Shown: piece by piece, positions 3,214-55,529 of the stretch
Layout: every line of letters starts with the position of its first letter
Numbering within the stretch: position 1 is the first letter of the stretch
Origin: a virus
Virus record (IMG/VR): IMGVR_UViG_3300044655_002046
Reading direction: 5' to 3' (one strand)
DNA: 64,000 nt
Position numbers and translations under genes: made by a program
The notes under the pieces: generated by a model
The model's database searches: none
The model's input: the letters and a program-made list of their open reading frames with translations, nothing else
Told to the model about the DNA's origin: nothing

Positions 3214-3216
3214 CGA

Positions 3217-3774
3217 TTAAATAGGTAATATGAATTTAACGCGCGTGCGGTCAGTAGGGGTAGCGTGAGTCACGGGAGTGAATAGGAGTGCCATCTGCGC
3301 AGGGCCCGTGTCGAGCCATTCGCCGGGTAGCCAGAAGTCAGCATTAGTATTCGCGCCTGTCTGTAATACTACATCAGTTAGCAGTGATGCAGAACGAAAG
3401 GCCCCGGGTACCTGCTCACCGGATACTATTGCCTCTACGTATAACGCCTGGGGTAATAGGCTTAGGAGCGATGTAAGGTTAGCTCTATCATTAGGTATTA
3501 TGTTCCAGCGCTGGTCCCCCTGTATAATATCACCGCCGCTCTCTACTCTATAGGCCAGTGATACTCGGTGAGGGCGCAATATAACCTGAGTGTTCAGGAA
3601 TGCAGGGCCCTGCGGTATAGGTCTATCCGGCGGCTCATCTATATTGAGTGGGTTATCGGGGGCCCATGTTGTATAGCGGCCTATTCCCACACGTAAGGGC
3701 AGTGTGTCTCTCATTTGTATCAGACGATATATCCGCCCTTCTGGTGTAGTCTTACTTATGATGGTAGTACTCAT
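3217..3774 (-). CDS. Putative baseplate/tail structural protein (185 aa)
   Basis: ORF track; start overlaps the upstream stop at 3774; lies in the tail operon. Confidence 0.55.
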   Translation of the reverse strand: MSTTIISKTTPEGRIYRLIQMRDTLPLRVGIGRYTTWAPDNPLNIDEPPDRPIPQGPAFLNTQVILRPHRVSLAYRVESGGDIIQGDQRWNIIPNDRANLTSLLSLLPQALYVEAIVSGEQVPGAFRSASLLTDVVLQTGANTNADFWLPGEWLDTGPAQMALLFTPVTHATPTDRTRVKFILPI

Positions 3775-20075: not shown

Positions 20076-20298
20076 GGTTTTGATTGCCCTATAAAGGCTA
20101 TTATGTAATTCTCTTCGACTTTGAACCATATAGCAGAGAGAATGCAGATTAGGGAGGTGTCCGCAACATCTTTTGAAGTGCCACCTTCAGCTATTTCAAA
20201 TTGGCTTCTCAGCCATTGTCTAGTCCCACTTACGCTTACTTTCCGCTATTGGCTTTAGCTTCTGGCAAGCCCTGTCGCTTCAGCGCGGGGTTGGTGAC
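20076..20298 (-). ncRNA. omegaRNA scaffold of IsrB
   Basis: ~220-nt non-coding region upstream of isrB beginning with the canonical GTCA.C.ACCCC...GGGCTTG hairpin. Confidence 0.75.
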
Positions 20299-25413: not shown

Positions 25414-26610
25414 CTATATTAATCCCTTTAATACACTAAGGCGCGGGTCTACTGCATTCAGACCCCCACCTATACCAGATCTTACTCTCCACTCGAAGTG
25501 AAGATGAGGGCCAGTGCTATGGCCAGTACTGCCTACTTCGCCTATTACTTGTCCCTGCTGCACTATGTCTCCTAGTTTAACAGCAAACTTGCTCATATGC
25601 GCGTACCAGCTCTGATTGCCCCCTACGTGTTCTAGTCTAACTATATTACCAAATCCATTATTCTCAAATCCGACTGATATCACTTTGCCCGCCATAGTGG
25701 CTAATATAGGTGTGCCTATTGGGGCCCCTATATCTATGCCGTTGTGCATCCTACCCCAGCGCCAGCCGAACCCACTAGTCAGAGATCCCTTAGAGGGTAT
25801 TATGCCACTCCCAGAGCCTGGCCTACCAGGTATTACCTGACCTGCCAATGCGCTTACCTCATTGAACTGAAACCCGGGGGCTCCTGCTCCATAGGATACA
25901 GTATTATTAGTCATAGCTCTATTAACCTGAGGTATAGAGCCCGTATGAGTAATAGCATCGCGCTGGTTATAGGGCCACTTGAATTCTCCTGTACGATTGA
26001 ATATAGCATTAACAAATCCATCTATACCCTCCGCTAATGCCTGCGCTAACTGTTCATTAGAATAAGCACTATCGCCCGGTATAGTGGGAGCATTACCCCC
26101 ACCACCACCACTCAAAGTAGATGGTGCCGGGCCCTGTCCTCGTCTATAGGCTAGGTACTGTTTATATAGAGTATCTAGCGTATTCTCGCCACCTCGTGCT
26201 TCAGAGGCCCCCGGTAGACTAGTCCATTGTTTCCGTAGCTTGTTATAGTAGCTTAGGATGTTACCACTCATGACCTCCTCTACCGTAGTACCAGTCTCAT
26301 CGAGTATTAAATATAATATCGCTAGATCCTGGTTCAGAGGGCTGAAGTCAGATAACATTCCCCCAGTTTCTCTATTAATACCATCCCATGTCACATCTAA
26401 GATCTGGTATCTACCTGCAGCCGTGGTGTAGTTCCCCCCACTTCGTATTGGGAATCTCTTGCGGGGGTGGTCCGCGTAACTACTGAATTTAGATCCACCG
26501 TATAGTGTGTTGTAGTCGGCCCCCTCAAATTGTCCATCACTAATTACATCCAGGAGGGCCCTAAACTCAGGCCTATTCAGTAGAGGTTGTAGATTCTCTC
26601 TATTCCACAT
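25414..26610 (-). CDS. Lambda-type muramidase fused to an M23 peptidase
   Basis: RALLDVIS...YNTLYGG...TAAGRYQIL..TW; C-terminal HNGIDIG, YAHMS and GHSTGPHLHFE. Confidence 0.9.
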   Translation of the reverse strand: MWNRENLQPLLNRPEFRALLDVISDGQFEGADYNTLYGGSKFSSYADHPRKRFPIRSGGNYTTAAGRYQILDVTWDGINRETGGMLSDFSPLNQDLAILYLILDETGTTVEEVMSGNILSYYNKLRKQWTSLPGASEARGGENTLDTLYKQYLAYRRGQGPAPSTLSGGGGGNAPTIPGDSAYSNEQLAQALAEGIDGFVNAIFNRTGEFKWPYNQRDAITHTGSIPQVNRAMTNNTVSYGAGAPGFQFNEVSALAGQVIPGRPGSGSGIIPSKGSLTSGFGWRWGRMHNGIDIGAPIGTPILATMAGKVISVGFENNGFGNIVRLEHVGGNQSWYAHMSKFAVKLGDIVQQGQVIGEVGSTGHSTGPHLHFEWRVRSGIGGGLNAVDPRLSVLKGLI

Positions 26611-30104: not shown

Positions 30105-30815
30105 TTATTGTGTAATACTATTCCCAAACGATGAGGAAGAGCTTCCCACAGATATAGGACGAGTTGTGTTTTTGAACTGCTGAACAGATTCAGGAATATA
30201 CCTAATACCTTCAGCTACACCTTCCCAACGTTGTGCAGGTACGCGACGACCAGGCATGAAGCCGACGCTGTAATTATCTACCTTGCATCTAGTTATCTCA
30301 TATCTAAACTTCGCCCTACGATTACGACTAGCAGCACTATTAGTAGGGAACTCTATGCCGCTCTGATTATCGCCATTAGAAGCGATATTCCAGTAATCGA
30401 GGGATCCTAATCTACGGCTATCTGCTCCACTACGAGTTAGTGGATTAGTTACTAACTCAGCCGCATTAGCATCGAAGGTAATCTGGAACCGGGGGCTCCG
30501 ACCTAGTATTTGATCACGACCAATTTCATTAGTGCCGAACGTGCGGCCCATAAATTCACCATCAACTAAACCTTGTTCTAGTACCCACGCGATGTTATAT
30601 TCCCCGTCTAGATAGACAGGTACGCGTTGGCCTAATTCTAAATAGGTCTCAGTCGAATTTCTAATACTGAGCGTCAGGGACTGGAACTTACCGAACCAGG
30701 CAACCTGTCCGCTACTAGTGTCATTAACCCAGACCTCGAAGTCAAACCCACTAAAGGGATCGAGACCGAAGTTATTGACAGCAGGAGTGAGGAAAAGAGC
30801 GTCTTTAGATGACAT
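30105..30815 (-). CDS. Tail tube protein
   Basis: Directly after the sheath; FQSLTLSIRNSTETYLELG...LDGEY.I...LEQG.V tube-like pattern. Confidence 0.8.
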   Translation of the reverse strand: MSSKDALFLTPAVNNFGLDPFSGFDFEVWVNDTSSGQVAWFGKFQSLTLSIRNSTETYLELGQRVPVYLDGEYNIAWVLEQGLVDGEFMGRTFGTNEIGRDQILGRSPRFQITFDANAAELVTNPLTRSGADSRRLGSLDYWNIASNGDNQSGIEFPTNSAASRNRRAKFRYEITRCKVDNYSVGFMPGRRVPAQRWEGVAEGIRYIPESVQQFKNTTRPISVGSSSSSFGNSITQ

Positions 30816-40399: not shown

Positions 40400-40798
40400 A
40401 TGCAATTAGAGAGATTATTGGTTTTAGAGGCTCTAGAGCGACTTCTAGTTCGCCGTATTCGTAATGCGACTATTGAGGGTACCTATCTGGTCTTTAACCT
40501 CGATGAGGGGTTGAGTACCAAGCCGTATAAGATAAATATAGCTACTCTATTACACGGCACGCTTGAGTCTACATATTATAATTACCTGGCCGGCCGTATG
40601 CTAACTGAGGGCTACACCTATACTGCAATTGAGGGAGGTGAGATAGTAGAGTCACCTCGTGGTAATATCTATCAAATACATGGCACAGACTGCAGCTGTC
40701 CTCAGCGAGGTTACTGTAAGCATCTCATACTGCGGGACTGGCACCTGACATACCGAGCGCGGCAGAATGATCTACGGCATCGCGTAAAACCTAAATAG
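40400..40798 (+). CDS. SWIM zinc-finger protein
   Basis: DCSCPQRGYCKHL (CxC-x-CxH). Confidence 0.75.
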   Translation: MQLERLLVLEALERLLVRRIRNATIEGTYLVFNLDEGLSTKPYKINIATLLHGTLESTYYNYLAGRMLTEGYTYTAIEGGEIVESPRGNIYQIHGTDCSCPQRGYCKHLILRDWHLTYRARQNDLRHRVKPK

Positions 40799-42131
40799 AA
40801 CTAATAGCATCGGGCAATCCAGTAATGGAGCGTATGTGGTTCTTATCTCCATCTACTAGGAAGCCCATGTCGTGCATTTGCTTAATGGCTCCTATTAGTG
40901 CTGCTAGATCAGTGGCCCGCCCCGGTAAGCGAGTTATATAACCTGTGTTGTTAGCTAGTGGGTATAGCGCGGGGTCGAAGTTCATCTTGATTAGATTACC
41001 TATGACCTGTTCAGTGAAGGCATGTATCACTGTATCGAATATACTGTTGATCTTACCATCGAAGAGCTCTAGTTGAATCTCACTGGCCCGCCCTGTGCCA
41101 AAGGTAGTCTCTTTATTTTGCATCAGTAGGTTAGGAATACCCATACCCATTAGCATATTGCTATCGCAGAGTGATATGGCTCTCTCGAATGAGTCGCTGA
41201 AGTTATTACCTGTAGTTAGGGCCCCCACCTGTACCGGCTGCTCCTTACTGAGCTGTGTTAATACTAAACCAGAGTCAGTGCTCAGACGCCGGAGTGCGTC
41301 CTCTGCCTGCTCCGCTATAGTAGTGGTTATCTCTGTACCATCGGGGGCCTCCTCCACTACGCCTGTATTACCAGGCGGTACTATTACGTATATGAGGGGG
41401 GTACCATAGCGGTCTAGAGCTATGAGCATCATATCTCGGAAGGCCCGCTTAAAAATAGAGTAGTCTAGCACGCTAGTGAGGCAGCTGGTACCCCAAGGAT
41501 TATTACCCTTAGTGTTGTAGTTAATGAATAGCCGTTTGTTACTAGGGAGCCGTACGTGACTACCTACCACGTCTACTCTCTTAGGGGGGTCTACTATTTT
41601 ATAGGGAGGCAGGGGTACCCAGTAGCCCGACTTGTATTGACTAGCTGTTACTGTATCACCATCTACTATACGGCCATTGTCGTTAGTGACGAGCATAACC
41701 TGTAGTGGATGATAATTGACTATGTCATCTAATACTGTAGCCGGCATATTATCCCGCGTGCCGTGGGCGTATATCTGCTCGCTTAAGCTGAAGCCATACG
41801 TCATAATAGACTTCACGCAATGAGATATCCATGTCTTGGCTCTATTGCGTAGTTGATCATCTATGAACTTCTTAATGCGCTTATCCTCGTGTTGATAGGG
41901 CCCGACCTTATTAAGCACGCTCAGTGCTATAGAGTCGAGGCCCTGCGCTATGATAGGCTCTACCTGCGCTGCCTCATCCCAGGCACTCAGCTGCTGGTAG
42001 GTAGGCTTGCCTGCTCGTCTATAGCCGCCATCCTCAGATAGATAGCTAGTGGCTAGACCTAGGTGCTCCATAGCGTAGATAGTGCGCCGGCGTATTGCTG
42101 GCGTGGGGGCATTGCGTACTTCCATATTCAC
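40791..42131 (-). CDS. Portal protein (DUF935/Mu gp29-like)
   Basis: SIMTYGFSLSEQIY, GNNPWGTSCL, LIALDRYGTPLIY and FGTGRASE..LELF. Confidence 0.88.
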   Translation of the reverse strand: MNMEVRNAPTPAIRRRTIYAMEHLGLATSYLSEDGGYRRAGKPTYQQLSAWDEAAQVEPIIAQGLDSIALSVLNKVGPYQHEDKRIKKFIDDQLRNRAKTWISHCVKSIMTYGFSLSEQIYAHGTRDNMPATVLDDIVNYHPLQVMLVTNDNGRIVDGDTVTASQYKSGYWVPLPPYKIVDPPKRVDVVGSHVRLPSNKRLFINYNTKGNNPWGTSCLTSVLDYSIFKRAFRDMMLIALDRYGTPLIYVIVPPGNTGVVEEAPDGTEITTTIAEQAEDALRRLSTDSGLVLTQLSKEQPVQVGALTTGNNFSDSFERAISLCDSNMLMGMGIPNLLMQNKETTFGTGRASEIQLELFDGKINSIFDTVIHAFTEQVIGNLIKMNFDPALYPLANNTGYITRLPGRATDLAALIGAIKQMHDMGFLVDGDKNHIRSITGLPDAISSI

Positions 42132-42613
42132 CAGAATGAGGGTCTTTTAATCTCAGATAGTGGGTTAGAGTTCATATTCTCTAAAGATTTAGTCATTTCT
42201 TCTAGGGATTGCTTTTGTTTCTTATTCTGATTCTGAATATAGTTAGACGCTGCTTGATAGGCGGCCTCCTGCATATATTCGTCTTGCTGAATGAACTCCT
42301 GCAATCCTATACCAGTGACGCTAGCTATTATAACCCACTTCTCTAGTTGATAGTACTTGGTATAGTTCTGCGCCACCTGAACTACATAGTTATGTTTAAT
42401 AACGGGTAGATAGGGGTCAGGTGGCGGCGATACTATAAACCTAGCACTAGGGAATATACTGCCAGCAATTTGTAGCAGAGGGTCGGCTATACGCTGGAGC
42501 GCGGCATTCTTACAGAATAACTCAGTGTTTATTAGATGGAAGTACGTTAGATGAATGTTTAGATGACTTGCTTCGATTTTGTAGTCGTAGCTCGCGTGGA
42601 AACACCCATAAGC
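42128..42613 (-). CDS. T-part of the tail assembly chaperone G-T fusion (entered by -1 frameshift)
   Basis: The frame of the track ORF 42128-42376 stays open, with no ATG, for 79 more codons up to the slippery site at 42613-42619. Confidence 0.75.
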   Translation of the reverse strand, partial: AYGCFHASYDYKIEASHLNIHLTYFHLINTELFCKNAALQRIADPLLQIAGSIFPSARFIVSPPPDPYLPVIKHNYVVQVAQNYTKYYQLEKWVIIASVTGIGLQEFIQQDEYMQEAAYQAASNYIQNQNKKQKQSLEEMTKSLENMNSNPLSEIKRPSFW

Positions 42614-42921
42614 TTTTTTGCCTCCGCTTGGGCCTTCTCGCGCCCTTTATCGTCAATGAGGTATAGGGTACTGAATACCTCCATGAAATATTGTTGATCC
42701 TCGACACACCAGTCGTCGGTGATACCATCGGGTTCGTAATCGTAGGCATCGCTATCCAGGACCCGGCCATTGATGTTAACAATACAACGGATAGCTAGTA
42801 CTTCTTCAGGTAATAGGCCGCACTCCTTATTATAATTCTTGATCATCTCGCGACGGTCGTGAACCAGGGGGGGCTTGAAGCTAACCTCGAATTGACCCTT
42901 CGGTAATATGATAGTGTGCAT
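42559..42921 (-). CDS. Tail assembly chaperone (G-part)
   Basis: 120-aa acidic protein with in-frame GCA AAA AAG near its 3' end. Confidence 0.75.
   Translation of the reverse strand: MHTIILPKGQFEVSFKPPLVHDRREMIKNYNKECGLLPEEVLAIRCIVNINGRVLDSDAYDYEPDGITDDWCVEDQQYFMEVFSTLYLIDDKGREKAQAEAKKLMGVSTRATTTKSKQVI
42613..42619 (-). other. -1 ribosomal frameshift heptamer A_AAA_AAG
   Basis: Correctly phased X_XXY_YYZ; the -1 frame is open to the stop at 42128, giving a 264-aa product. Confidence 0.8.
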
Positions 42922-42977: not shown

Positions 42978-45900
42978 ATGAGGCCGCTGCCCGCTAAAGT
43001 AGGCAGTTTTTCAGCTATAGCTCTATTTAATAGGTTTTGTACTCTACTGATGGACATCAATAGCTCACTATTCTCTAGTAATCGATTTAATGACAGTGCT
43101 CGTTGGAATGCCCTCTACCGTATCCCTGAGGATACCCGTAGTAGATTACTGCAGGGCTATAATCCTCTAGAAGTACTAATAGACCCTAGCTTTATACCGC
43201 CTGGTACCGACGCCTCTATGGAGATGGTACTAGCTGATGCTTTCTATGATAGGGTAGTTGATACTAGTAGTAGTCGAGCTGCTATCTCGAGCCTATGGGA
43301 TAGTATGGAGGGCCCCGCTCGTCAGGAGTACTTCGAATACATGGCAGGTATGGGGGGTACAGCTACTCCTGCTCGTACCCAGACTGATGATATGCTTAAT
43401 TGGATGGCCCAGCGAGATCAACTCACTATGCGGTCTAACCTAGAGGGCATAGATGATGAGCGTCGCCTACTACTAGAGAATCGCTCTAGCATGTTGGATC
43501 TATTATCTGATGATGGTTATAATGTACGGCCGGGCCTACTACCTATTGCCGCGCTAGTGGATACAGCAGAGAGAGAACTGCGTATAGACATCTATCAGTT
43601 CCAGAATGAGCGCGCTATAGATATGGTGGGTGAGGCTGTAGAGAGAATGGCCGGTAGTGGTCTGGGCGGCCGTGTGGTAGTTCGTATGGCCGCTCCATCT
43701 GAGACTGATGGGGACTCTCGTAAGAATTATGATATCCTGGGCCCCAACATTATGTTTTATAAGCGGCTGTCTTATCTACGGGACCGCTTCGGGACTGATG
43801 TAGATATAGATATCCAATGGGCTGATAGACGTAATCACCCTAAGTTCTTCGTCAGTGATAGGGCCGCTCTCATAGGTACAATGAACGTGACGCGGCCACT
43901 AGGACAATCGCTAGAGCAGGCTGGCTCTAACGTAGAGTTCACGCGGACTATACGCACTAACCTAACTTATAGCCAGATTCAGAATGCCGATAGGGGCATA
44001 CTGCCTGATAGTATGACGCGGGCCGATAAGTTATATCTACAGGCCCGTGACATTATGGATAGATTAGATGGCGGCGATAGAGTTCTATTCACGGGACAGG
44101 ATAGTATAGGTGGTGCCGGCGATGTTAATACTGCTCTACGCCGCCATGTAAATGAGCTCACTAATATACCTACTATCGATGGCAAGACAGGTCGCCTCTA
44201 TATGGTACTTAATCAGGTGTTCCTGCTCAAGCACGATAAGTCCCTGATGGCAAGTCAGCTTAAAGGAGAGATGGGAGAGAACCCTGAGTCGGAGAGAATA
44301 CTATCGGGTTACCAGGCCTATATGCAGGCCAGAGAACAGGAATACTCTAAACTCCAGGCTAATGTACTAGATCTAATTATAGGGGGCCGCGCTCGTGTAG
44401 GTGTAGATGTACATACCTATCGAGAGGATGTGCAGGACCCCATGAACCGCTTATTACTGAGTAACCAGAAACTGGCTGCTGAGTTATCTCAGTCTAATTA
44501 CGACGTAACCCGTTGGATTAAGGAAAACCGGGGCTCTGATGTTAGTGATATGGCTAACGTGCTAAACACGTATGGCTTCTATAGTGGAGATCTCGAGGGT
44601 CGCCAGCGTATGGCTCGACAATTATTAGCTATAGCTAGTGGTAATATAGAGCCGACTGCAGTGCCGCGCAGCCACGTTAAGGCATACCTGGCGACTTATG
44701 AGAATGACGTCATAAATCAAGGGGCCGGGCTGGGCATGCAGAATATAGACAATCGCCAGACCTTCGATATCCTGGGCGGTAGTCAGGGATCCAGTAACTA
44801 TGGTCTTAATTCTCTGGCAGATAATGATGACCCCCTGAGCCGTCGACTGGTTAACCAGGAGATCAATATGATTTACGATAGGGTGAGTGGGACAAGCCCC
44901 CTTAGTCTCTCTGATGAGGAGCGCGATGAGGAGAATAGAGAATACGCGCGGGCCTTCTATAAATTACAGAGCTCCCTGGGAATACAACGAATAGGTGAGA
45001 CTCATTATAGTGGACGGGACCGTAGGTCTATGTACGGTAATAGAGTAGATAGAGGAGCCATACTGGACCTAATCGACGAAATAGAGAGAGTTAATGCAGC
45101 TGTCGGCTCTGAGGTCATAGGTATACAGCAAGACTACGATGGTCTTAATCTAGAGGGCGCTACTCTAACCCTCAATAAGGGTCTACCTACTCAGCGTATA
45201 TATAAATGGGGCGCCTATAAGGACGCTAGTGGACGGGGGCCCGCCGCCTTCATAGATATAAGCGGGGGCCGTCAGATAGAGTCAGCTGAGCTATTCAATA
45301 CTGGCACAATGCGCATGGAGCTGGCTATAGAACATGATGGTCGCGGAGTGGGCTTGGATCCTCGTAGACGCCTGCGCCTTAATCCACTGGATGTAGTAGT
45401 GGGCCTCATGAGCTCTATTGCGTTAGAGAGTGAGACTACTCGTTTAGTGCGGGCCCCACTTATAGAGTACCAGAGGTACTATAGCCCTGATAATATACGC
45501 GCCGCCCAGGCCGTACAGCGTAACCCCGGCGCTCAGTATCAGAGTGCCATGAACTTCTTCGAGAAGCTACTGGGCGTGAGTGGTCTTGACTTAACCACAG
45601 ATGAAGGTACCAGTAGAGTACAGCAGGGCCTCAGTAACCTGACCTCCTTGTTCTACTCTAGTGATCCTGATCTAGATCGCATACGAGACCTAGCGAGTAT
45701 ATCTCGTACTGATAGTCGCCGTAGAGTGGCCTTCGAGGAACTATCTAATATATTCCTTACCTATGCGCGGTCTATAGATGAGAGGGGCCAGCCCATAATA
45801 GACCTAGAGGCACATCGCAGAGGAGCCCTTAATCTTGCCGCTAATAAGTTATATGAGATTATGGATCAGGGCCCCATGTTCGCTGATGTGTTATTCAAGT

Positions 45901-48900
45901 TCATCGAATCCCAGAGTGATAGTCGCTATAAGACTGATGTGCGCGAGAGGTTAAAGGAGATACATGATAGCGCATTCGCCGCGTTCCTTACTCCTACGCA
46001 GGCTCGTAATTATGGTACTACGCAGGCAAGTAATCGGTTACTAGCCTATGGCTTTGGTCAGGGTAGGCAACCCGCTGGTATATCTATAGTTAATGCCGCG
46101 CTACGTCGTATTAAGGCTAATGATACTACCTTTAGTAATCTGAGTGCTTTCGCTTATACTGCTAGCCCATTGCCTATAGGCCCGGTATCTGACCTCGGTG
46201 TAGGTGATGATTTCCTCTTCGTACGAGTTGCTGAAGGTAACGTGAGTCCTACGACTACCGATGAGAGTCAGTACTTCACTGCCTATAGTAACGTGCTGCC
46301 TCTATCTCGCGGCGCTACTGCCAGTGAGGTATTCGACCTATCCATCATACGCAGTGCTGGTGTGGGGAATATCATACGGCGGGATGAGCTGAGTGAATAC
46401 ATGAAGGCAGTGAGTCACCTGGGTATAGACCGCTCTCTGCTAGAGGCAGAGTTCGATGCCCGCGGCGATAACCTGCTCAGGTTCTTCTTTGATCCTAATA
46501 AGCCGGACCAGATGCCTCAGCGTCTCAAGAACGTGATTGGTATGCGCCCCCTCATGGATATAAGTGAGGGTTACACACAGGTGCTGGAGCTAGTTAGTCC
46601 TATTAATACTGGTAAGGTTATACCTGAGTTGACTCCCGTTAGGTATCAGGCTCGCTACGGTGGGAGCAATGTAGATGTACTGCAGGGCAGTATGTATCAG
46701 GACGCATACCTAGCTGATCTGCGCGCAGGGCTAGAGGCACGAGGGCTAGATAGCAGTATCGTAGATGATAGCTATCGCTATGGTGCTATATTCAGTGGTA
46801 GAATATCGCGCTTCATGAGCAGTGAGGCGGCTGTAGAACTAGAGGCTATACGGGATGAGCTGGCCGACCGCCTGGGTATCGATAGTGAGGATATACCCAC
46901 CGAGGATGATAGCGTACTGGCCGAGCTATTCCGCGCTACTATAGTGCAATCTCAGCTCTTCGCTAGTAGAGAGCGGGGATTGATAGGCTCTGGACAGGCC
47001 CGCCCTACTGTTATGATTATGGCATTAGAGGGGGCCTATAGTGACTACGCGTATGCTAACCCATTACATAGGGTAAGACGTGGCTTCCTAGATCAGGCCA
47101 CTAAGAGCAGTAAGGCCAGTCTATTAGGGCGAGATTGGACATTCGATAATATACTAGTGAGTAGCGATGACCGCATTGTATTCGATGAGAGAGAGCAGCG
47201 CTACTATCTACTAGATAGAGAGGGGCGTCGTAAGCAGACCATCACTAGTCGTAGCGAGATGCGCGTATTCCTGGACCAGATAGAGAGTACATCTCGTAAT
47301 CCTAAGATGGGGGCCTCTATGGCTACTAGTGCCGCAGCAGGTATACGCGGCGAGTATGCTATTGAGCAACTACTACAGGTTAGTAGGCTGACTGGTAGCG
47401 ATGCTACTAATGAAGTGCAGGTGCAGATACAATTCCTGCGTACTCTACTTGAGGGCGGCTCCCGACGGGTAGAGGCAGAGCGCGGGCTAGCTAAGATAGT
47501 CCCTGTGTTCCTGAGTGAGGATATTATGCGTAGTGAGGTGTTCCCCACTATACAGCAGGGGGGCTATCATAGTGCTCTCGAGATAGAGGACATTCAGTAT
47601 ATAATTAGCCCCACTAATCTGAAGAGCTATGCATTCAACCACGGGGCCACTCTACTTACCTATAATGGTGGGGAGCTATTCCGTCGGGGGGTACTGGAAC
47701 GAAATGATCAACAGATAGCGGCGGCCCTGCTTTCCATAGCTGATTCGCGTCTCTTTAGTAATAGCAGCAATATTAATATAGACAGTGTTCATATAGAGAT
47801 AGCACAGTTGGCAGCGCAGGGGCGGCTCGGTAATTACTATCGTGACCTCTATATGTCTACTATGCTGGAACTTATGCGGAGCGGTAAGCTAGGAGATGAC
47901 TCACCTCATCTCGAAATAGGGAGGAAGCTAGTACGCGGGAGCGATGATGCTATTAATAGATTACAGAGTCCTGTTTTAAGAGCCATTGATATATCAGAGA
48001 TAATGGCCGCTCTGCGTAGTGGGACTAGTAGCGGGGCATTATCTGATAAGGTAGGGCTGATGGTAGATGCGGCAGATGCAGCGCGCAGGGGTTATGTAGA
48101 TACTGGGGCTATGGGCCGGGGCTTTGAGCGCGCTGCTTTAGCCGGTAACCTAGAGATTATGATGCAGCTCATGTCACTTAATAATACCCTAGAGCTCAAG
48201 ACCGCACCAGTGACTGGTAGCGATAGTATATCCCGCCACGCGTATGCGGCTATGAGCGCTATAGCAGGTGTTACGCAGGCAGATGAGATGAACATAGGCC
48301 AGGAGAACGTGGCCGCTATGCTCGATAGACTGAGTAATTACTCTCGCTACGTGGTGTTATATAATGCCGTGATGGGTAGTAGCTCTAAGGTGCCATTGAG
48401 TAGTAAGGACACTGCGCAATTAGAAATGCAGCATATAGTATCTAGCCCCTTCATGGCTAACGTGGATAAATTCAAGCGCGATGGTAGTGTCGATAGTATG
48501 CGTAGGGCTATCCTCGGTGTTATGAAGATGGCTATAGGGGCAGACCCCAATAAGATAGCGGTGGATGATATTCCTATGTATGACCTAGCTAGTCTGGACT
48601 TCCATGCTAACTCTACGTTGGGAGAGATACTACTAGGAGCGTATAATGATGCGCGGGCCCCACTGAGCGATATAACTAATCTACGCGAGCGATACCGGCA
48701 GTTCCACACTGCATTATCTCTACTCGAGAGCGCCAGTGATACTGACATGGTGTCATATACTAGAGGGTCGGGCCTCGATACTACTAATGTTACTCATACT
48801 ATACTTGATGAGATAGCGGCATGGGTAGGGCAACCTGCTGGGACTGATAGAGATACTCTGCGTAGTGTAGTGCGCCAGTCACTTCGTGTCCTGAAGAACG

Positions 48901-51900
48901 ATATATATGCCCACGCGTCTCGCTGGCGTCTAGCAGGGGATAAGGTATTGGGTGTAGAGGCTACTGAAGCTACCGTGCAGTCAATGGGCCAGAAGGGTCT
49001 TCGTCGTATAGCCTATGAGTTTCCCTCCTTCCGTATAGAGGGGAATAACGTTGTATTCAATACAACTATTAAGGATAGGGGATTTATCCTGAGTCCTGAG
49101 GATGTCAGGATAGCAGGTATCCAGTTCGGTAGTCACGAGAATGAGATAGCTGCTGCTACGGTAGATAAATGGATTATGCTGGCTCCCGGTAGTGCAGTAC
49201 GTGATATCTTCGAGAAGGTAGCCATTGAGTCTGGCTCGAAAACTACTATTGAACTGGAGGGCCTCAGTGATTTCCAGATACAGGAGTTGACTCGGTTCCA
49301 GGAACTCAACAACACTTATGAGGCCCGCGTTTATAATGACCTGGCAAGCTCGTATCTGCAGTCTATCACTGGTAATAAGATAGGTGTGACAGGTACTACT
49401 GGCGTGGGGGCCGCTAGCTGGTATGTACCTGTGCGCGGCGCCGTATTAGCAGAGGCTACTATGGAGCGCTTCGGTACGCGAGGTAGTCAGACACGAGAGG
49501 AGATACTCACTAGATTAGGAGACCATCTTAAGAATAACCTGTCTGTTATTGGCCAGTCAGGTGATAAGAGAATTGGGCGCAGGTTAATACAACAACAGAT
49601 ATACGCTATAACCGAGGGACTCAGTATAGCGGGCATGTATGGGCTGGAGACAGTAGTAGATAAAAGTAAGAACTTCCAGAGTAGGATAGCCGGTATAGGA
49701 AAACTAGCTCCTGCTTTACAGGCGGCTGAATATGCCCAATTAGAGATAGAAGTTAAGGCCGAGATGGATAGATTCAGTAGCATGAAATTCAGCGGCAGCG
49801 GGGATTCTCTGATATCTACTCTAGGTGAAGCCGAGATGGGCACAATACTAGAATCTCTGCCTGGAGCTAAGACTCATAAGTATATAGACCTGGGCCACTT
49901 ACCTGTTATTATCTCTGGGCTCGTGATAGGTAGTCAGGGCCCGGCCCGCTCTATCATACCTGATAATATGCGGATCTACATTGACACTAATGCATTAGGT
50001 AATAGGTTTGATAACCTGGATCTACTACAGGGCCGTATACGTAAGAATCCCATAGACCTATCCTTCTTCAGCGATACGCGCGGTAAGGATGGCGCTGAGA
50101 TGCTGAGTACATTCTCTACTAGACTAGATAGTCTAGAGAGAACTATTAATGATGTGACCTCTGCTGTAGATACGTACTTAGAGGGTAGGAGCCCGCGGGG
50201 CACTGATTTACATAATAGAGGTGGGGCCCTCATAACTCAGTATAGGAAGCTGGTAAGTGATGCAAATGCTGCCTATGCAGTGGAACTAGATACAGTAATG
50301 GCTAATCGTGCGGCGCGCGATTCATTATTCATAATGAATAGTACTCTGCAGGCTGATATGAGTATATTCTTCACTGAGCTGGAGTTAACGAGAGCCTGGA
50401 TTCAACGTAGCCCGCCTCCTGGTAACACCCATCTTGATAAGCTGGTGTTCGGACTAGATACACTCAATAGTATCAATAACATATACCGAGACCTGACAGG
50501 CAGTGGCTTTAACTTCTTTGATGATACTCGTAATAAGTCGTTGACTCTACTCAATCCCATCAGCTTTATAACTAGTAACCTAGGGGACTTCGATGGGGAT
50601 ACCTTCAGCGCTATATTCTTCAATTACTCTCAGATGAAGTTGCAGCGCGATGATATGCTGGAGCGTGCTAAGGAACGGCGGGAGATGGCATCTCAGGCCG
50701 CTGATCCCGCTAAGCGTACCATTCTAGAGAAGCAAGCTAGTGACCTAGAGACGCGCGCCAGTGCTCTACTGGATACTATACAGCAGGTAACTACTAATGC
50801 TAATTGGAATGAGTATACCGACTCAGTGTATAGCTGGGTAGCGGGCTATATGAAATTAGATAAGGGTATGCTGGAACAGAGAGGTATAGAGCATGCTCTG
50901 GTACTAGTAGAACAGGCCCGCGGTCTCTTCGGTATGATGGAGGATGTATATGCGCGTATACAGCCGGCCCATGAACCCCTATTAGAATTAATACAGCAGA
51001 GCAGAACTGATAGTGCAGTTGATATAGTTAATAGACTATCTACCTCTACAGACCAGAACATACTAACCGATCTCGTTAATAATCCCGATACGGGGCCGTT
51101 CGTGCGGGCTAGTCTACATGATATCCTGAGCGCTACAGGTAATGATCAGGAAGAGAAGGCCTATGACTTCCTGCATAAGCTAACTGCTGTTAATACCCGC
51201 GATAATCTCAGCAAGTACATGAAGCGCGCTGATGGTAGTGTCATGAGCGGGGGCCAATTTGATATGATGCAGAAGGTGCTGGGTCAGGCAGGTAGTGTAA
51301 TCCTTGGTAAGACGTATAACACTACCGTGGGTATGCTATACGAGCGCTCCCCTATCATGGCCGTATCTCACGCACTAGAGAATAGCTCGGCTCTACAGGA
51401 TGACATACGCCGTATACTAATAGACCAGGGTATGGCAGGCGGCATGAGCGCAGGTGATGCTAATCTAGAGGCCGATAGTAAGATAGCGGATATACAGAGA
51501 CTGGCCCGCCAGAGTAGAACAGAGGTAGGTGAGGTGGGTACATTCCTGCAGGAGATACAGCAAATGCTGCGGGACGCTATTAAGCCTAAGATGGGGGGCG
51601 CTGAGTTCCTAGAGAACTTATCGCAGTACCATAAGCGTTTTGTAGATGCTGTCGATGATGTGGAGCGCCAGCGCGTAGTAGATGATATGAGTAAGCTACT
51701 ACCGTCTATAACTCCTCTATTTAAGTTAGATGCGTATATAGGGGCTCATAAGGAATTACTGGCATCAGCTACTAATGATGCTCAGGACTCTAAGATTAAT
51801 GATCTACTGACTAAACTATCCATTGGAGAGACTGAGCAGTTAGATTTATCCCGCCGATTGAGTGTACTGCGAGGAGATGAGATAGGTACTCATAGCCGCG

Positions 51901-53666
51901 CCCTCATAGCCAGTTATCAACTACGACAGGACCTAGTGGGTATGACGGCTGTATTCGCCTTCGAGCGGGCTATGCCAACCGATAAGGCAGGTAACCCCAT
52001 TAGCTCTGGTAGAGGCCTAGCAGAGAGTGTAGAGACCTACATAAATAGTGAGCCCGCGCGGGCCGCTCAGATAGATACTCTCATAGCAGGGGGCATCACT
52101 AATGGCCTCACCGAGATGGAGATAGAAGTAGAAGAGTTCCAGAACTTCACTCGTGATGTAATAGGAGATAAGCGCTTCCAGGATATGGGTACAGATACTA
52201 AGCGTTTATTAGCTATGAACTTCCTACGTAGTAGAGAGAGCGCATCGCTCTGGGCTAATACTGATGGCAGTAAGCTACTGCGCTTCGCTATTAATGATAG
52301 TACCCGCTCCACACTATACGGAGGACAATTAGAGGATGTACTCGGTCAGGATCTGATTACTGCCGCCGGTGACCCTACTGGCTCAGGAGCTAGTCCGCTA
52401 GTTAGATCACTGTTACAGGCTGTATCGGCCGGGAAGATAAACGAGCCTGAGCAGGTAACACGGGCCCTCGAGTCTCTTATGGATACCTTCACCCACGCTG
52501 ATGGTAAGCGCTACGAGATAGCAGATATCTTTAGTGTGTTACTCAATAGTGGTACCCCTAGCCCAGCTGATAAGGAGATAGCAGAGTTTATTCAGAAGAC
52601 AGTTCTCACAGATGAGACGGCCACTAGTCGATTGGTTACTTATGTTCGCGCTACAGCACTAGGTCAGCAGGTAGATACAGCTGATAGGCTAGTAGAGGAG
52701 CTACGGGACTATGAGAGCCGTGACGTCGATACGCGCTATATAAAGCTGCTACAGGATATGGGTGTCGCCCCAGATAGAGCTAAGGAACTATCAGCTCGTC
52801 GACGCGATTACCTACTGGCCGGCTCTCCTCCTGATATGGACCCACTGGACCCCAGCCCGCGACCGGCCCGCCCTATCTTACGTGTAGCAGATGATCTACC
52901 TATTCTTAACAATACTGCCGGTAATCTAATGGATGTACTTCTCTTCCCCCTAATGGCACTGGCAGGAGATATGATTAGTAGTGGTGGAGCCCGCCCCGAG
53001 GCAATGCAGCAGACTATGGGTAATATGCTAGGTGCTATGGCTTACGTAAGCGCCCCAGCAGGTAACCAGATGGGACGTTTCGCCGCAGGTACTCTGATGA
53101 GTATGGGATTCAAGGGACGCCTAGCAGGTCAACTACACGAGGACTATACAATCGGTGTCGGTATGCTACTAGCACAAGAAATAGCCTTTGGCGCAACAGC
53201 TCAACTCGCAGGCCGCTATATCATCAACCCATTCGTAGAGAAGACACTCGGTAAGGCCCCCACAATAGACTCTGACCCATTCGCGGGCCTGCGTAATGTA
53301 GCTAGCAACGTCATCACGGGAGCATTGAGTCTCGTATCAGCAGGCTTCGTAAATAAGTTACTCCATCGTGGGTTAGAGGTCAGTATGCAGCGTAGTATAG
53401 CCCCCGTGGCTCTAGACGCTGTTAGTGCCGGTATACGCGCTACTCAAGAGAGTATGAATCGAGCTCGCATGGAACGAGAGGATAATGCTGAAACCGAGGT
53501 CGTGGATGACACGGGCTCCCCTGTTGAGTTCTTCGTACAAACTATATTCAATGGTGATGAATACGACACTTATGACGCCCTCTACATGAGCGACCTAACA
53601 GTAGACCGTCCTAATAGTATGGCCTATCGAGATGAGAACGAGAGTTACTCTATGGATCTGGTTTAA
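42978..53666 (+). CDS. Giant virion protein (~3540 aa; likely ATG at 43050): PLD-like domains, putative two-barrel RNA polymerase, tape-measure-like C-terminus
   Basis: HPKFFVSD..GTMN (H287); HVK..GSSN (H566); ERGLAK1506 and ISPTNLK1549; QR2477SPP; NPISFITSNLGD2537FDGD; Gly/Ala-rich hydrophobic helices at ~52920-53360. Confidence 0.7.
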   Translation: MRPLPAKVGSFSAIALFNRFCTLLMDINSSLFSSNRFNDSARWNALYRIPEDTRSRLLQGYNPLEVLIDPSFIPPGTDASMEMVLADAFYDRVVDTSSSRAAISSLWDSMEGPARQEYFEYMAGMGGTATPARTQTDDMLNWMAQRDQLTMRSNLEGIDDERRLLLENRSSMLDLLSDDGYNVRPGLLPIAALVDTAERELRIDIYQFQNERAIDMVGEAVERMAGSGLGGRVVVRMAAPSETDGDSRKNYDILGPNIMFYKRLSYLRDRFGTDVDIDIQWADRRNHPKFFVSDRAALIGTMNVTRPLGQSLEQAGSNVEFTRTIRTNLTYSQIQNADRGILPDSMTRADKLYLQARDIMDRLDGGDRVLFTGQDSIGGAGDVNTALRRHVNELTNIPTIDGKTGRLYMVLNQVFLLKHDKSLMASQLKGEMGENPESERILSGYQAYMQAREQEYSKLQANVLDLIIGGRARVGVDVHTYREDVQDPMNRLLLSNQKLAAELSQSNYDVTRWIKENRGSDVSDMANVLNTYGFYSGDLEGRQRMARQLLAIASGNIEPTAVPRSHVKAYLATYENDVINQGAGLGMQNIDNRQTFDILGGSQGSSNYGLNSLADNDDPLSRRLVNQEINMIYDRVSGTSPLSLSDEERDEENREYARAFYKLQSSLGIQRIGETHYSGRDRRSMYGNRVDRGAILDLIDEIERVNAAVGSEVIGIQQDYDGLNLEGATLTLNKGLPTQRIYKWGAYKDASGRGPAAFIDISGGRQIESAELFNTGTMRMELAIEHDGRGVGLDPRRRLRLNPLDVVVGLMSSIALESETTRLVRAPLIEYQRYYSPDNIRAAQAVQRNPGAQYQSAMNFFEKLLGVSGLDLTTDEGTSRVQQGLSNLTSLFYSSDPDLDRIRDLASISRTDSRRRVAFEELSNIFLTYARSIDERGQPIIDLEAHRRGALNLAANKLYEIMDQGPMFADVLFKFIESQSDSRYKTDVRERLKEIHDSAFAAFLTPTQARNYGTTQASNRLLAYGFGQGRQPAGISIVNAALRRIKANDTTFSNLSAFAYTASPLPIGPVSDLGVGDDFLFVRVAEGNVSPTTTDESQYFTAYSNVLPLSRGATASEVFDLSIIRSAGVGNIIRRDELSEYMKAVSHLGIDRSLLEAEFDARGDNLLRFFFDPNKPDQMPQRLKNVIGMRPLMDISEGYTQVLELVSPINTGKVIPELTPVRYQARYGGSNVDVLQGSMYQDAYLADLRAGLEARGLDSSIVDDSYRYGAIFSGRISRFMSSEAAVELEAIRDELADRLGIDSEDIPTEDDSVLAELFRATIVQSQLFASRERGLIGSGQARPTVMIMALEGAYSDYAYANPLHRVRRGFLDQATKSSKASLLGRDWTFDNILVSSDDRIVFDEREQRYYLLDREGRRKQTITSRSEMRVFLDQIESTSRNPKMGASMATSAAAGIRGEYAIEQLLQVSRLTGSDATNEVQVQIQFLRTLLEGGSRRVEAERGLAKIVPVFLSEDIMRSEVFPTIQQGGYHSALEIEDIQYIISPTNLKSYAFNHGATLLTYNGGELFRRGVLERNDQQIAAALLSIADSRLFSNSSNINIDSVHIEIAQLAAQGRLGNYYRDLYMSTMLELMRSGKLGDDSPHLEIGRKLVRGSDDAINRLQSPVLRAIDISEIMAALRSGTSSGALSDKVGLMVDAADAARRGYVDTGAMGRGFERAALAGNLEIMMQLMSLNNTLELKTAPVTGSDSISRHAYAAMSAIAGVTQADEMNIGQENVAAMLDRLSNYSRYVVLYNAVMGSSSKVPLSSKDTAQLEMQHIVSSPFMANVDKFKRDGSVDSMRRAILGVMKMAIGADPNKIAVDDIPMYDLASLDFHANSTLGEILLGAYNDARAPLSDITNLRERYRQFHTALSLLESASDTDMVSYTRGSGLDTTNVTHTILDEIAAWVGQPAGTDRDTLRSVVRQSLRVLKNDIYAHASRWRLAGDKVLGVEATEATVQSMGQKGLRRIAYEFPSFRIEGNNVVFNTTIKDRGFILSPEDVRIAGIQFGSHENEIAAATVDKWIMLAPGSAVRDIFEKVAIESGSKTTIELEGLSDFQIQELTRFQELNNTYEARVYNDLASSYLQSITGNKIGVTGTTGVGAASWYVPVRGAVLAEATMERFGTRGSQTREEILTRLGDHLKNNLSVIGQSGDKRIGRRLIQQQIYAITEGLSIAGMYGLETVVDKSKNFQSRIAGIGKLAPALQAAEYAQLEIEVKAEMDRFSSMKFSGSGDSLISTLGEAEMGTILESLPGAKTHKYIDLGHLPVIISGLVIGSQGPARSIIPDNMRIYIDTNALGNRFDNLDLLQGRIRKNPIDLSFFSDTRGKDGAEMLSTFSTRLDSLERTINDVTSAVDTYLEGRSPRGTDLHNRGGALITQYRKLVSDANAAYAVELDTVMANRAARDSLFIMNSTLQADMSIFFTELELTRAWIQRSPPPGNTHLDKLVFGLDTLNSINNIYRDLTGSGFNFFDDTRNKSLTLLNPISFITSNLGDFDGDTFSAIFFNYSQMKLQRDDMLERAKERREMASQAADPAKRTILEKQASDLETRASALLDTIQQVTTNANWNEYTDSVYSWVAGYMKLDKGMLEQRGIEHALVLVEQARGLFGMMEDVYARIQPAHEPLLELIQQSRTDSAVDIVNRLSTSTDQNILTDLVNNPDTGPFVRASLHDILSATGNDQEEKAYDFLHKLTAVNTRDNLSKYMKRADGSVMSGGQFDMMQKVLGQAGSVILGKTYNTTVGMLYERSPIMAVSHALENSSALQDDIRRILIDQGMAGGMSAGDANLEADSKIADIQRLARQSRTEVGEVGTFLQEIQQMLRDAIKPKMGGAEFLENLSQYHKRFVDAVDDVERQRVVDDMSKLLPSITPLFKLDAYIGAHKELLASATNDAQDSKINDLLTKLSIGETEQLDLSRRLSVLRGDEIGTHSRALIASYQLRQDLVGMTAVFAFERAMPTDKAGNPISSGRGLAESVETYINSEPARAAQIDTLIAGGITNGLTEMEIEVEEFQNFTRDVIGDKRFQDMGTDTKRLLAMNFLRSRESASLWANTDGSKLLRFAINDSTRSTLYGGQLEDVLGQDLITAAGDPTGSGASPLVRSLLQAVSAGKINEPEQVTRALESLMDTFTHADGKRYEIADIFSVLLNSGTPSPADKEIAEFIQKTVLTDETATSRLVTYVRATALGQQVDTADRLVEELRDYESRDVDTRYIKLLQDMGVAPDRAKELSARRRDYLLAGSPPDMDPLDPSPRPARPILRVADDLPILNNTAGNLMDVLLFPLMALAGDMISSGGARPEAMQQTMGNMLGAMAYVSAPAGNQMGRFAAGTLMSMGFKGRLAGQLHEDYTIGVGMLLAQEIAFGATAQLAGRYIINPFVEKTLGKAPTIDSDPFAGLRNVASNVITGALSLVSAGFVNKLLHRGLEVSMQRSIAPVALDAVSAGIRATQESMNRARMEREDNAETEVVDDTGSPVEFFVQTIFNGDEYDTYDALYMSDLTVDRPNSMAYRDENESYSMDLV

Positions 53667-53925
53667 CTAGCTTCTCTATCATACGCAGTGGTACTATATT
53701 GCAGGTAACCACTAGCGTAGTACTGTGCACATATTGATTAGATAACTCTATCAAATTACCTGACTTATCGAATAGTGAAAAGCGACACTCGATAGGACCA
53801 TTAATGGGCGGCACCTCGAAACGAGTGAAGTGAAATGGCTCATCCGCAGCAGTCATCCCAGCGAATATTATAGTCGGTAGTGATGTTATCTCGTATGTGA
53901 GTCTGTAGTCTGAGAGTATTACCAT
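53650..53925 (-). CDS. Hypothetical protein
   Basis: ORF track; chain of overlapping minus-strand ORFs. Confidence 0.5.
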   Translation of the reverse strand: MVILSDYRLTYEITSLPTIIFAGMTAADEPFHFTRFEVPPINGPIECRFSLFDKSGNLIELSNQYVHSTTLVVTCNIVPLRMIEKLVKPDP

Positions 53926-54173
53926 GCTAATTGAGTAGGACTTACGTGAATATTAAATTCTAGTACGCCGTACTCCATCAGCATGGCGCATATATATCCT
54001 ATATTATCCCCTATATCATCTTCTATGGCTAGTACTGCCTCGTATGGTTCCAACTTCTCTACTATAATATTGTCCTCCCCCGCTGTCTGTAGCCAGCCAA
54101 AGGCATCCTCTCCTATTGTATGTGACCAATCAAGGGACTGATGCTGTGAGAATGTAATTGATATATAAGTCAA
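53919..54173 (-). CDS. Hypothetical acidic protein
   Basis: ORF track; ATGA overlap with the upstream gene. Confidence 0.55.
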   Translation of the reverse strand: MTYISITFSQHQSLDWSHTIGEDAFGWLQTAGEDNIIVEKLEPYEAVLAIEDDIGDNIGYICAMLMEYGVLEFNIHVSPTQLAW

Positions 54174-54418
54174 CGTATAACTCCTGATTTCTTAAGGTAG
54201 TGTCCTAAGTAAACGTATAGTAACTTAAGGTGCTGAAGATAGGTACGGTTAACTCCGCGTAGTAATCTCTTACTTATTCTAATCCTAAGGATATCTATAT
54301 CAGCCGGTGTATCTAGGTAATATAAATGTAGGAGTTGGTGCATGTCCTCTGGCTCCAACTCCTCTAACTTCACCTTATCTAGTGGCGCTAGCTTATCTAG
54401 TAGTATTAGCTTGTCCAT
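54170..54418 (-). CDS. Hypothetical protein
   Basis: ORF track. Confidence 0.55.
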   Translation of the reverse strand: MDKLILLDKLAPLDKVKLEELEPEDMHQLLHLYYLDTPADIDILRIRISKRLLRGVNRTYLQHLKLLYVYLGHYLKKSGVIR

Positions 54419-55272
54419 GATCCATTCCCCTGGCGAGCCCAGTAATTATCTACTAATGGGGCTGTATCCCCACCGTTATTCCAGAAGTTCTGCGGCATAC
54501 TACTCCTATTGGGGGGTAATAATCTGGTCTCTAGACTAGAGCCTACGGGGTGCTGTAGTATATCGCTCTCTCCTGAGTGATTTATCTCGGGACTGAAGCG
54601 AGAGAATAGATACTCCCCCCAGAACTCCACGGTTACGGTACAGGGGGCCTCTAGTAATAACTCTAGTAGTTTAATACGTATAATAGGCCGGTGCAATAAG
54701 AATATACCACTGACTCCCTGGGCCGGCCCATCAGGAGTCTGTAGTATTTCTACCGTATGAGATACGGGGGGATCTACGACTACACGGGCGGCCACCCTCT
54801 TACCTGCATTGACTAGAGGTAATACATAGGGTGTAGTAGGAACGGTACCCTGCCATACTAGCGTATCTACACACTTAGGTCTATAGTGCTTCTCCTGCCT
54901 ATACGTATTAATACGCTTCTGCCACCGCAGGAAATCACTATCACTGGGCGGGCCCATATTATAGGGATTAGACACTGAGCCAGAGTATACGTCCTCGTAG
55001 AAGGGGCGTATGAGTCTATAGTAGTGATCTGCCTCATACACACGAGAGTATTGGCCCAGGCTGACCATATCTAATCGTACGGGGTCTGTTTCATTGAAGC
55101 GTATCTCGTGATATCGGCGACTATACACGCGGGCTCCCTGTGTGGTAACCTGCTGCTCTCCTACTACCCATTCCTCCTCCAATTCACTATTGAACTGCTG
55201 TATGACAGCATTAGTAGTAGCGGGGGGTGAGTTTATGGTAGTAGGTTGTGGATCTCTATTAAATGTAAGCAT
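54406..55272 (-). CDS. Hypothetical protein coupled to PAAR
   Basis: ORF track; TAATG overlap at 55272. Confidence 0.6.
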   Translation of the reverse strand: MLTFNRDPQPTTINSPPATTNAVIQQFNSELEEEWVVGEQQVTTQGARVYSRRYHEIRFNETDPVRLDMVSLGQYSRVYEADHYYRLIRPFYEDVYSGSVSNPYNMGPPSDSDFLRWQKRINTYRQEKHYRPKCVDTLVWQGTVPTTPYVLPLVNAGKRVAARVVVDPPVSHTVEILQTPDGPAQGVSGIFLLHRPIIRIKLLELLLEAPCTVTVEFWGEYLFSRFSPEINHSGESDILQHPVGSSLETRLLPPNRSSMPQNFWNNGGDTAPLVDNYWARQGNGSWTS

Positions 55273-55529
55273 TAATCTATGAAGGTATCCTCACTACCTG
55301 TTACTATAACGCCGCAGAAGACGCGATCTATAATACTCACGGCGGGTATGCCATTAATGAACGTGCGCGGGCTGCCAGTGATAGCGGGCCCCGGCACTGA
55401 CTTGTCTCCTATTCGTATGGCGGGTCTACCATTAATCATAGTATCAGGACTACCTGTGTAGAAAGGCCCGCTGGGTATCCCGGGGCATATGCTTCTCACC
55501 ATATCTCCTATCCTGCACGCTGGAAACAT
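55272..55529 (-). CDS. PAAR-repeat spike-tip protein
   Basis: PACRIGD...GSPDTMINGRPAIRIGD...GSPRTFINGIPAV..ID; AGGAGG RBS. Confidence 0.92.
   Translation of the reverse strand: MFPACRIGDMVRSICPGIPSGPFYTGSPDTMINGRPAIRIGDKSVPGPAITGSPRTFINGIPAVSIIDRVFCGVIVTGSEDTFID

Follow-up and report, generated by a model that had tools for sequence, protein, structure and literature searches.

The window analysed here is a viral DNA stretch of 64,000 nucleotides (IMG/VR record IMGVR_UViG_3300044655_002046). Its DNA is 95% identical to the Microcystis myophages Ma-LMM01, MaMV-DC and MaMV-DH01, and it is a Ma-LMM01-type Microcystis myophage. The plus strand carries at positions 42978-53666 a giant open reading frame (ORF) of 3,562 amino acids (aa), the homologue of gp080 of Ma-LMM01, which there is labelled 'hypothetical protein'; the identity is 96.6% across the final 1,663 aa of the giant. 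The region in question, positions 52000-53666, corresponds to the final 555 codons of the giant (nucleotide 52000 lies in residue 3008). The original prediction for this region was a tape-measure-like, membrane-active C-terminus on a protein that also carries a nuclease and an RNA polymerase. The following features were located in the giant and in one of its relatives.

43836-43859, plus strand: phospholipase D (PLD)-type motif HxK(x)4D, H287-D294, of an N-terminal nuclease-like domain (sequence motif and family profile)
50586-50600, plus strand: DFDGD, residues 2537-2541, candidate catalytic metal-binding motif, invariant in 13 giants
51885-52817, plus strand: all-helical domain of short helices, residues 2970-3280 (AlphaFold2 model)
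52818-52913, plus strand: proline-rich linker of variable length, residues 3281-3312 (family alignment)
52926-52988, plus strand: hydrophobic helix H1, residues 3317-3337, with a conserved L-F-P core
53148-53213, plus strand: helix H3, residues 3391-3412, Gly/Ala-rich, with a conserved central (R/Q)-E pair
53295-53363, plus strand: hydrophobic helix H4, residues 3440-3462, the most transmembrane-like segment
53460-53663, plus strand: acidic C-terminal tail, residues 3495-3562 (alignment of 19 homologues)
Locus L007, 3926-15025: split giant of one distant relative, two ORFs of 1,467 and 2,186 aa, 135 nucleotides apart

When residues 2950-3562 were searched exhaustively with HMMER, 20 proteins matched; each is either a giant of 3,500-4,300 aa, matched at its very C-terminal end, or a fragment of such a giant. 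Column for column, 19-20 homologues (21-45% identity) align in the hydrophobic helices, in the intervening polar motifs and in the acidic tail. H1 is followed by an invariant P-E-A-x-Q-Q-x-x-G motif, and the acidic tail closes with a conserved aromatic Y-S/A-x-x-x motif. The distance from the G-F-K-x-R motif to the C-terminus is constant across the family (172-208 aa), and the last polymerase-like motif is followed by ~680-790 aa in every member, in giants of 3,511-4,379 aa. The linker at residues 3281-3312 is the most gapped and least conserved part of the family alignment. In the split giant the C-terminal module remains with the polymerase-like half, so the PLD-bearing third is separable from the polymerase-like part and the module. 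The C-terminal module is real and conserved, and a membrane- or particle-anchoring role for it is plausible.

The AlphaFold2 model of residues 2950-3562 (m1b43f137d3e4), built from 20 aligned sequences, contains 23 helices of 4-38 residues and no strand of at least three residues. Its mean predicted local distance difference test score (pLDDT) is 57.6. The helical domain reaches 70-92 at residues ~2970-3125 and 75-85 at ~3250-3280; the start of the linker (to ~3281) is helical, the chain from ~3282 is coil with pLDDT below 50, and the hydrophobic part stays below 55. The helices of this low-confidence model are short and form no long coiled coils. The helical C-terminus that had been predicted agrees with the all-helix model, and the three hydrophobic segments quoted for it were located at residues 3321-3330 (LLFPLMALAG), 3392-3412 and 3445-3458. 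The description of this end as Gly/Ala/Met-rich holds in part: the content of these residues is 27% at 3201-3400 versus ~20% elsewhere, but this enrichment is modest because residues 1601-1800 reach 28%.

The usual threshold for a transmembrane segment is a mean Kyte-Doolittle hydropathy of 1.6 over 19 residues. Hydrophobic segments of transmembrane-like character are present in H1 and H4. The family mean hydropathy of H1 is 1.18, with 19-residue windows of up to 1.6-1.9 in relatives, and H4 has a mean of 1.38 and a maximum of 1.93, is free of charges in 13 of 19 relatives and shows a small-xxx-small-xxx-small pattern in 10 of the 19. H3 is unlikely to cross a membrane alone, since it carries 2.9 charged residues on average. 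The hydrophobic segments are only borderline transmembrane in the giant of the window (1.4-1.5). The top hydropathy windows of the entire chain of 3,500-4,300 aa, at H1 and H4, fall within the last ~7% in all seven family members scanned, and the values of 1.6-1.9 found for the module in relatives are comparable to those of the membrane segments annotated in the tape measure of Thermus phage P23-45. The hydrophobic C-terminal feature is more than chance.

Upstream of this region the giant has two parts that resemble enzymes, which were compared over 13 full-length relatives with 24-44% identity. The HxK(x)4D motif near residue 290 is common to all 13. The family profile weakly matches the poxvirus virion nicking-joining enzyme and the PLD4 exonuclease (E-values 0.009-0.02), and PLDc_2 was matched in two relatives (E-value 5e-4). 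A second H-x-K stands at residue 566, followed by a G-S-x-G-S-S-N stretch. At H287 the giant carries a full motif of the PLD/Nuc superfamily, HxK(x)4D(x)6G, of which there are two per active site.

The DFDGD motif is preceded by R2477-P2480-G2482, and the resulting pair R-S-P-P-P-G ... G-D-F-D-G-D, spanning residues 2477-2541, is invariant in the 13 giants, as are GK.YN within AGSVILGKTYN (2771-2781) and RD.IKPK (2865-2871) further downstream. The R-x-P-x-x-G ... D-F-D-G-D pair is also found in, and aligns with, the virion RNA polymerase part of P23-45 gp96, a tape measure of 5,002 aa whose N-terminal part is a two-barrel virion RNA polymerase (PMC10770324). A DxDGD metal-binding motif preceded by R-x-P, which two-barrel RNA polymerases carry in their beta-prime-like barrel, is present in the giant. 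The polymerase of the original prediction is probable from these invariant motifs, but from motifs only: hhalign against the gp96 family gave a probability of 1.6-11%, with all of the score from a 17-column DFDGD block; block-shuffled templates equalled this score in 15 of 60 runs, and past the motif block hhalign detected no similarity to gp96. A G-K-T-Y match between the giant and gp96 was dropped, being not conserved in phage TSP4. The published survey of two-barrel polymerases in viruses includes neither Ma-LMM01 nor any other Microcystis phage (PMC10770324).

Searches by family and fold returned little. The Pfam search gave no match to the giant, its sole PHROG match is a singleton PHROG, and the PDB sequence and profile searches returned the PLD motif and coiled-coil noise only. 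The AlphaFold2 model of residues 1900-2950 has pLDDT below 50 around DFDGD and is too poor to reveal a barrel, where a two-barrel polymerase has two double-psi beta-barrels, a bridge helix and a trigger loop; with it, VIA-align and Foldseek found helical hairpins only and the ESM Atlas gave no usable match. Over both AlphaFold2 models, fold searches (VIA-align wide; Foldseek against the PDB) gave only generic helical hairpins, below the noise level of helical proteins. A tape-measure fold and a polymerase fold were thus neither found nor excluded.

The giant lies among structural genes, of which the following are needed here.

40791-42131, minus strand: Mu-type portal gene (PF06074, E-value 3e-26; PHROG 113)
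42128-42921, minus strand: G/GT-like pair of a 120-aa and an 82-aa ORF with a -1 programmed frameshift, slippery A_AAA_AAG at 42619-42613
55272-55529, minus strand: PAAR spike-tip protein (PF05488)
30105-30815: presumed tube protein of 236 aa, unannotated, inferred from its place after the sheath gene

Gene neighbourhoods were compared in 10 relatives, namely IMG/VR loci and the Microcoleus phage My-WqHQDG. The giant, the frameshift pair and the portal gene are contiguous in all 10, including two with the giant in the opposite orientation, and the place of the giant between the PAAR gene cluster and the pair, portal and head genes is held in the 10 despite one inversion. Relative to the giant, the pair has a divergent orientation or, in two relatives, a downstream position; nowhere does it lie upstream on the same strand. 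The portal homologue in Ma-LMM01 is gp083, there annotated 'tail protein'.

The neighbouring frameshifting chaperone claimed by the original prediction has a counterpart in this pair. An A_AAA_AAG heptamer stands in phase 18 codons ahead of the stop of the 120-aa ORF, and the -1 frame is open for 144 codons past this stop, into the 82-aa ORF, without a start codon before 42376. The products would be 120 aa and ~264 aa, sizes that are typical of tail chaperones. The same arrangement occurs in 10/10 relatives (the loci with the conserved pair include L007, L008, L009, L010, L011, L012, L014, L016 and L017), with an in-phase heptamer at the same site in eight, A_AAA_AAG in six and G_GGA_AAG in two. 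In the relatives the -1 frame remains open for 141-158 aa past the stop, and the stretch between the two ORFs is conserved as protein. Judged by its sequence, the pair is genuine: its -1 frameshift is conserved and its architecture is that of lambda G/GT. Database annotations give the 82-aa ORF less than its full length and take the sequence between the two ORFs for intergenic DNA.

The chaperones gpG and gpGT of lambda, which act with the tape measure gpH, were reportedly described by Xu, Hendrix and Duda in 2004. The pair resembles them in its short product with a -1 extension, in an XXXYYYZ heptamer ~20 codons before the stop and in similar sizes. It differs from them in its place beside the portal gene and not between the tube and tape-measure genes, in its non-canonical orientation and in the lack of a sequence match. 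Pfam, PHROG and 5.8-billion-protein profile searches with the pair found no named relative and no tail-chaperone family. A complex prediction for the 120-aa protein with residues 3284-3562 of the giant gave a score of 0.00, was run without controls and speaks neither for nor against binding.

In Ma-LMM01, gp080 shares expression class B5 with the majority of the structural genes; it shows no expression at 0-1 h and has risen to log2 8.5 by 6 h (PMC5780444). At 6 h gp120, a second giant treated below, stands at 9.0, gp098 at 9.7 and the capsid and sheath genes at 13-14, and both ORFs of the frameshift pair are at 13.2-13.6, on par with capsid and sheath (PMC5780444). These levels fit a low-copy late giant together with an abundant chaperone or structural pair, and they do not tell the candidates for the tape measure apart.

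Our preferred reading, to which we assign a probability of about 0.45, is that residues ~3313-3562 serve an ejected multi-enzyme giant as its end for anchoring and translocation, and not as a ruler. The anatomy of the giant, its conservation, its gene linkage and its late and low expression are established, and we infer its packaging, ejection and membrane insertion. The chain would run from the PLD-type nuclease-like domain through the DFDGD polymerase-like core, the helical domain and the linker to the C-terminal module, where H1 and H4 would flank a conserved polar core and the acidic tail with its aromatic motif would form the end. Low in copy number and late, the giant would ride in the particle and leave with the DNA. 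The module may retain it inside the particle, either at the portal or within the tail lumen, and after ejection may partition into the cytoplasmic membrane, which would place the enzymes at the site of DNA entry. If the giant is ejected, its C-terminal module sets where the nuclease and the polymerase-like enzyme land in the host, and the unusual 'no host shut-off' infection would be read differently.

Ejected giants have precedents in N4 gp50 and P1 DarB. A further one is P23-45 gp96 (PMC10770324). The virion RNA polymerase gp50 of the podovirus N4, a T7-type single-subunit enzyme of ~3,500 aa, is ejected with the DNA. The giant is comparable to it in size and in having a putative central polymerase between large domains, which in gp50 serve injection and encapsidation; it differs in polymerase type, and no sequence or fold relation between the two was found. 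The proteins gp14-gp16 of T7 and DarB of P1 are also large low-copy particle proteins which are delivered via the tail, some of them entering the host envelope, but they have no homology to the giant and bring other enzymes. We know of no ejection or internal protein with the combination of PLD and DFDGD.

Several observations weigh against this reading. The membrane-active look claimed for this end is conserved, and in relatives reaches the values given above, but the top 19-residue mean of the giant in the window is 1.54 and none of its windows attains 1.6. The central charge pair of H3 is conserved. The low pLDDT of the module means that the helices could be buried in a soluble bundle. The G/GT-like pair next door suits a tape-measure client better than a head-packaged protein, and the far more hydrophobic gp120 may be the true channel former. 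Finally, our literature search found neither a virion proteome nor a cryo-electron microscopy study of this phage group.

The strongest competitor, which we consider doubtful, is that the giant is a tape measure fused to enzymes, as in P23-45, and that the G/GT-like pair is its chaperone. The C-terminal part would then sit in the tube at the baseplate end, set or help to set the tail length, exit first and form the membrane channel, to be followed by the polymerase and the nuclease. This explanation is kept alive mainly because the G/GT-like neighbour is conserved and the canonical slot is empty. The pair is conserved with its tail-chaperone sizes and adjoins the giant in each of the 10 relatives, and the PAAR gene and other tail-tip genes flank the giant. 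The slot had been predicted to be empty, and this proved correct: a 623-aa non-helical protein begins 58 nucleotides after the tube gene, with neither a chaperone nor a helical protein there. Neither PF10145 nor PF20155 was found in five related genomes, nor any other Pfam tape-measure domain anywhere in the five.

The comparison with P23-45 gp96 is instructive on both sides. Both proteins are giants encoded among virion genes, with an identical DFDGD after R-x-P-x-x-G, and both have the same domain polarity, the polymerase upstream of Gly/Ala hydrophobic segments that lie C-terminal of it (PMC10770324). However, gp96 occupies the canonical siphovirus slot, its length matches a tail of 800 nm, and it has an M23 peptidase and five strong hydrophobic segments, whereas the giant of the window comes from a phage with a contractile tail, has a PLD-like part at its N-terminus and by far exceeds the tail in length. 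A fusion of the kind originally predicted does exist in nature, as gp96 demonstrates (PMC10770324). The pair is never in the canonical position, upstream of the giant on the same strand. The giant itself does not occupy the canonical tape-measure slot, downstream of a chaperone pair and between tube and hub genes; it is 12 kb from the tube gene and on the other strand.

The length of the protein also argues against a ruler. At about 0.15 nm per residue, the whole giant would extend to ~530 nm as a helix and the ~700 aa after the polymerase to ~105 nm. The tail of Ma-LMM01 is 209 nm long, and the range over the isolates is 209-260 nm. For MaMV-DH01 a tail of 230-260 nm is reported (PMC9927357). 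The post-polymerase part is too short and the whole giant far too long; that the full length exceeds the tail was correctly foreseen in the original prediction, whereas the ruler role was not borne out. Across relatives the C-terminal part stays constant in length while the giants vary, its predicted helices are short, and neither the giant nor its 13 relatives gave a Pfam or PHROG tape-measure match, which is weak evidence because tape measures are diverse. Among the isolates, the reported tail lengths vary between laboratories and all three candidate proteins are constant in length, which makes this comparison uninformative.

A historical form of the same explanation is equally doubtful. In a whole clade of large cyanophages with contractile tails (contigs of 95-250 kb), the chaperone and tape-measure unit would have come to lie beside the portal gene, and the tape measure would have gained a PLD nuclease and a two-barrel RNA polymerase by fusion; the hydrophobic C-terminal module would be the end by which the membrane is opened. 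If true, polymerase and tape measure would have been fused twice independently, first in P23-45 and again here, and no earlier case would come from a myovirus.

The tape-measure explanation also has to compete with two other proteins as candidates for the ruler.

20298-23816, minus strand: 1,172-aa protein of the baseplate-hub cluster (gp098 in Ma-LMM01), rival tape-measure candidate by length and repeats
Locus L029, 37619-46315: gp120 of Ma-LMM01, a second giant of 2,898 aa, outside the window, after the terminase gene

The length of the 1,172-aa protein suits the tail (~176 nm as a helix), and its homologues have 1,112-1,222 aa. It has an N-terminal part that looks beta-rich, a Pro/Thr-rich linker near 400-500, three tandem repeats of ~40 aa near 925-1030, one Gly-rich hydrophobic stretch and a C-terminal domain of 137 aa, where conservation among relatives is highest (32-37% identity). 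PDB and ESM Atlas searches with this protein gave no usable match. Its place in the hub cluster is the one that the tape measure gp29 has in T4.

The protein gp120 has nine windows of at least 1.6, up to 2.42, along its chain, compared with none in the giant and five in the P23-45 tape measure. It is 98.7-100% conserved in all isolates, and gp120-like ORFs of 2,798-4,152 aa occur in four of five distant relatives searched, including both complete genomes; the Pfam search gave no match to it. It resembles the giant in being conserved in the same clade, in its low expression and in its Gly/Ala-rich hydrophobic helices, but it has no DFDGD, and BLAST related it only weakly to two giant-family relatives (E-values of at least 0.05) and not to the giant of the window. 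In this phage group gp120 has so far been overlooked as a possible tape measure or membrane channel. If any protein of the phage has a tape-measure-like, membrane-active composition, gp120 does. The idea that one gene supplies the ruler, the channel and the first enzymes is weakened by this second conserved giant with its nine strong segments.

Another explanation, rather unlikely in our view, leaves the module without a membrane role: its Gly/Ala-rich helices would be the buried core of a soluble helical bundle, which would act as a capsid- or portal-targeting (encapsidation) signal of the giant or would complete the polymerase-like enzyme at its C-terminal side. This would be in line with a hydropathy below the usual transmembrane threshold in the window phage, with conserved motifs of charged and polar residues both within the helices and in the segments that join them, and with the conserved portal-gene linkage. 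About 1,000 aa follow DFDGD, a length similar to that after the same motif in bacterial beta-prime, and the C-terminal domain of N4 gp50 is an encapsidation domain. On the other hand, H4 is in most relatives a charge-free stretch of 19 residues with a hydropathy of 1.6-1.9, and the module is separated from the upstream domain by the variable proline-rich linker, which suggests that it is not merely the end of the enzyme fold. That the giant is an intracellular middle or late enzyme, such as a replication or transcription factor, which the module tethers to the thylakoid or cytoplasmic membrane, is improbable: gp080 does share class B5 ('middle') with replication genes (PMC5780444), and no virion proteome was found in the literature, but B5 also holds most structural genes, the gene lies inside the structural block and is portal-linked in 10 relatives, and it is absent from the early cluster gp054-gp063.

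Phages of the Ma-LMM01 type control toxic Microcystis blooms, and papers describe them as having neither a polymerase nor a known tape measure. The analysis frames the question as which of gp080, gp098 and gp120 occupies the tail tube, and which of them the frameshift pair serves. Should gp080 be the one inside the tail tube and the one served by the pair, polymerase-tape-measure fusion would be recurrent and not a curiosity of Thermus phages.

Some minor observations concern the other tail genes. The PAAR gene heads a small operon on the minus strand (53650-55529), which also encodes proteins of 288, 82, 84 and 91 aa and converges on the 3' end of the giant; the genes for the 288-, 82- and 91-aa proteins hold their position in most relatives. 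PDB searches with the 288-aa protein and with the 623-aa protein after the tube gene gave no match. A tail protein of 398 aa (25414-26610, minus strand) has a lysozyme-like N-terminal part and an M23 peptidase (PF01551, E-value 2e-32). The M23 peptidase is here a separate gene beside the spike, and a peptidase of the same type lies inside the tape measure of P23-45.

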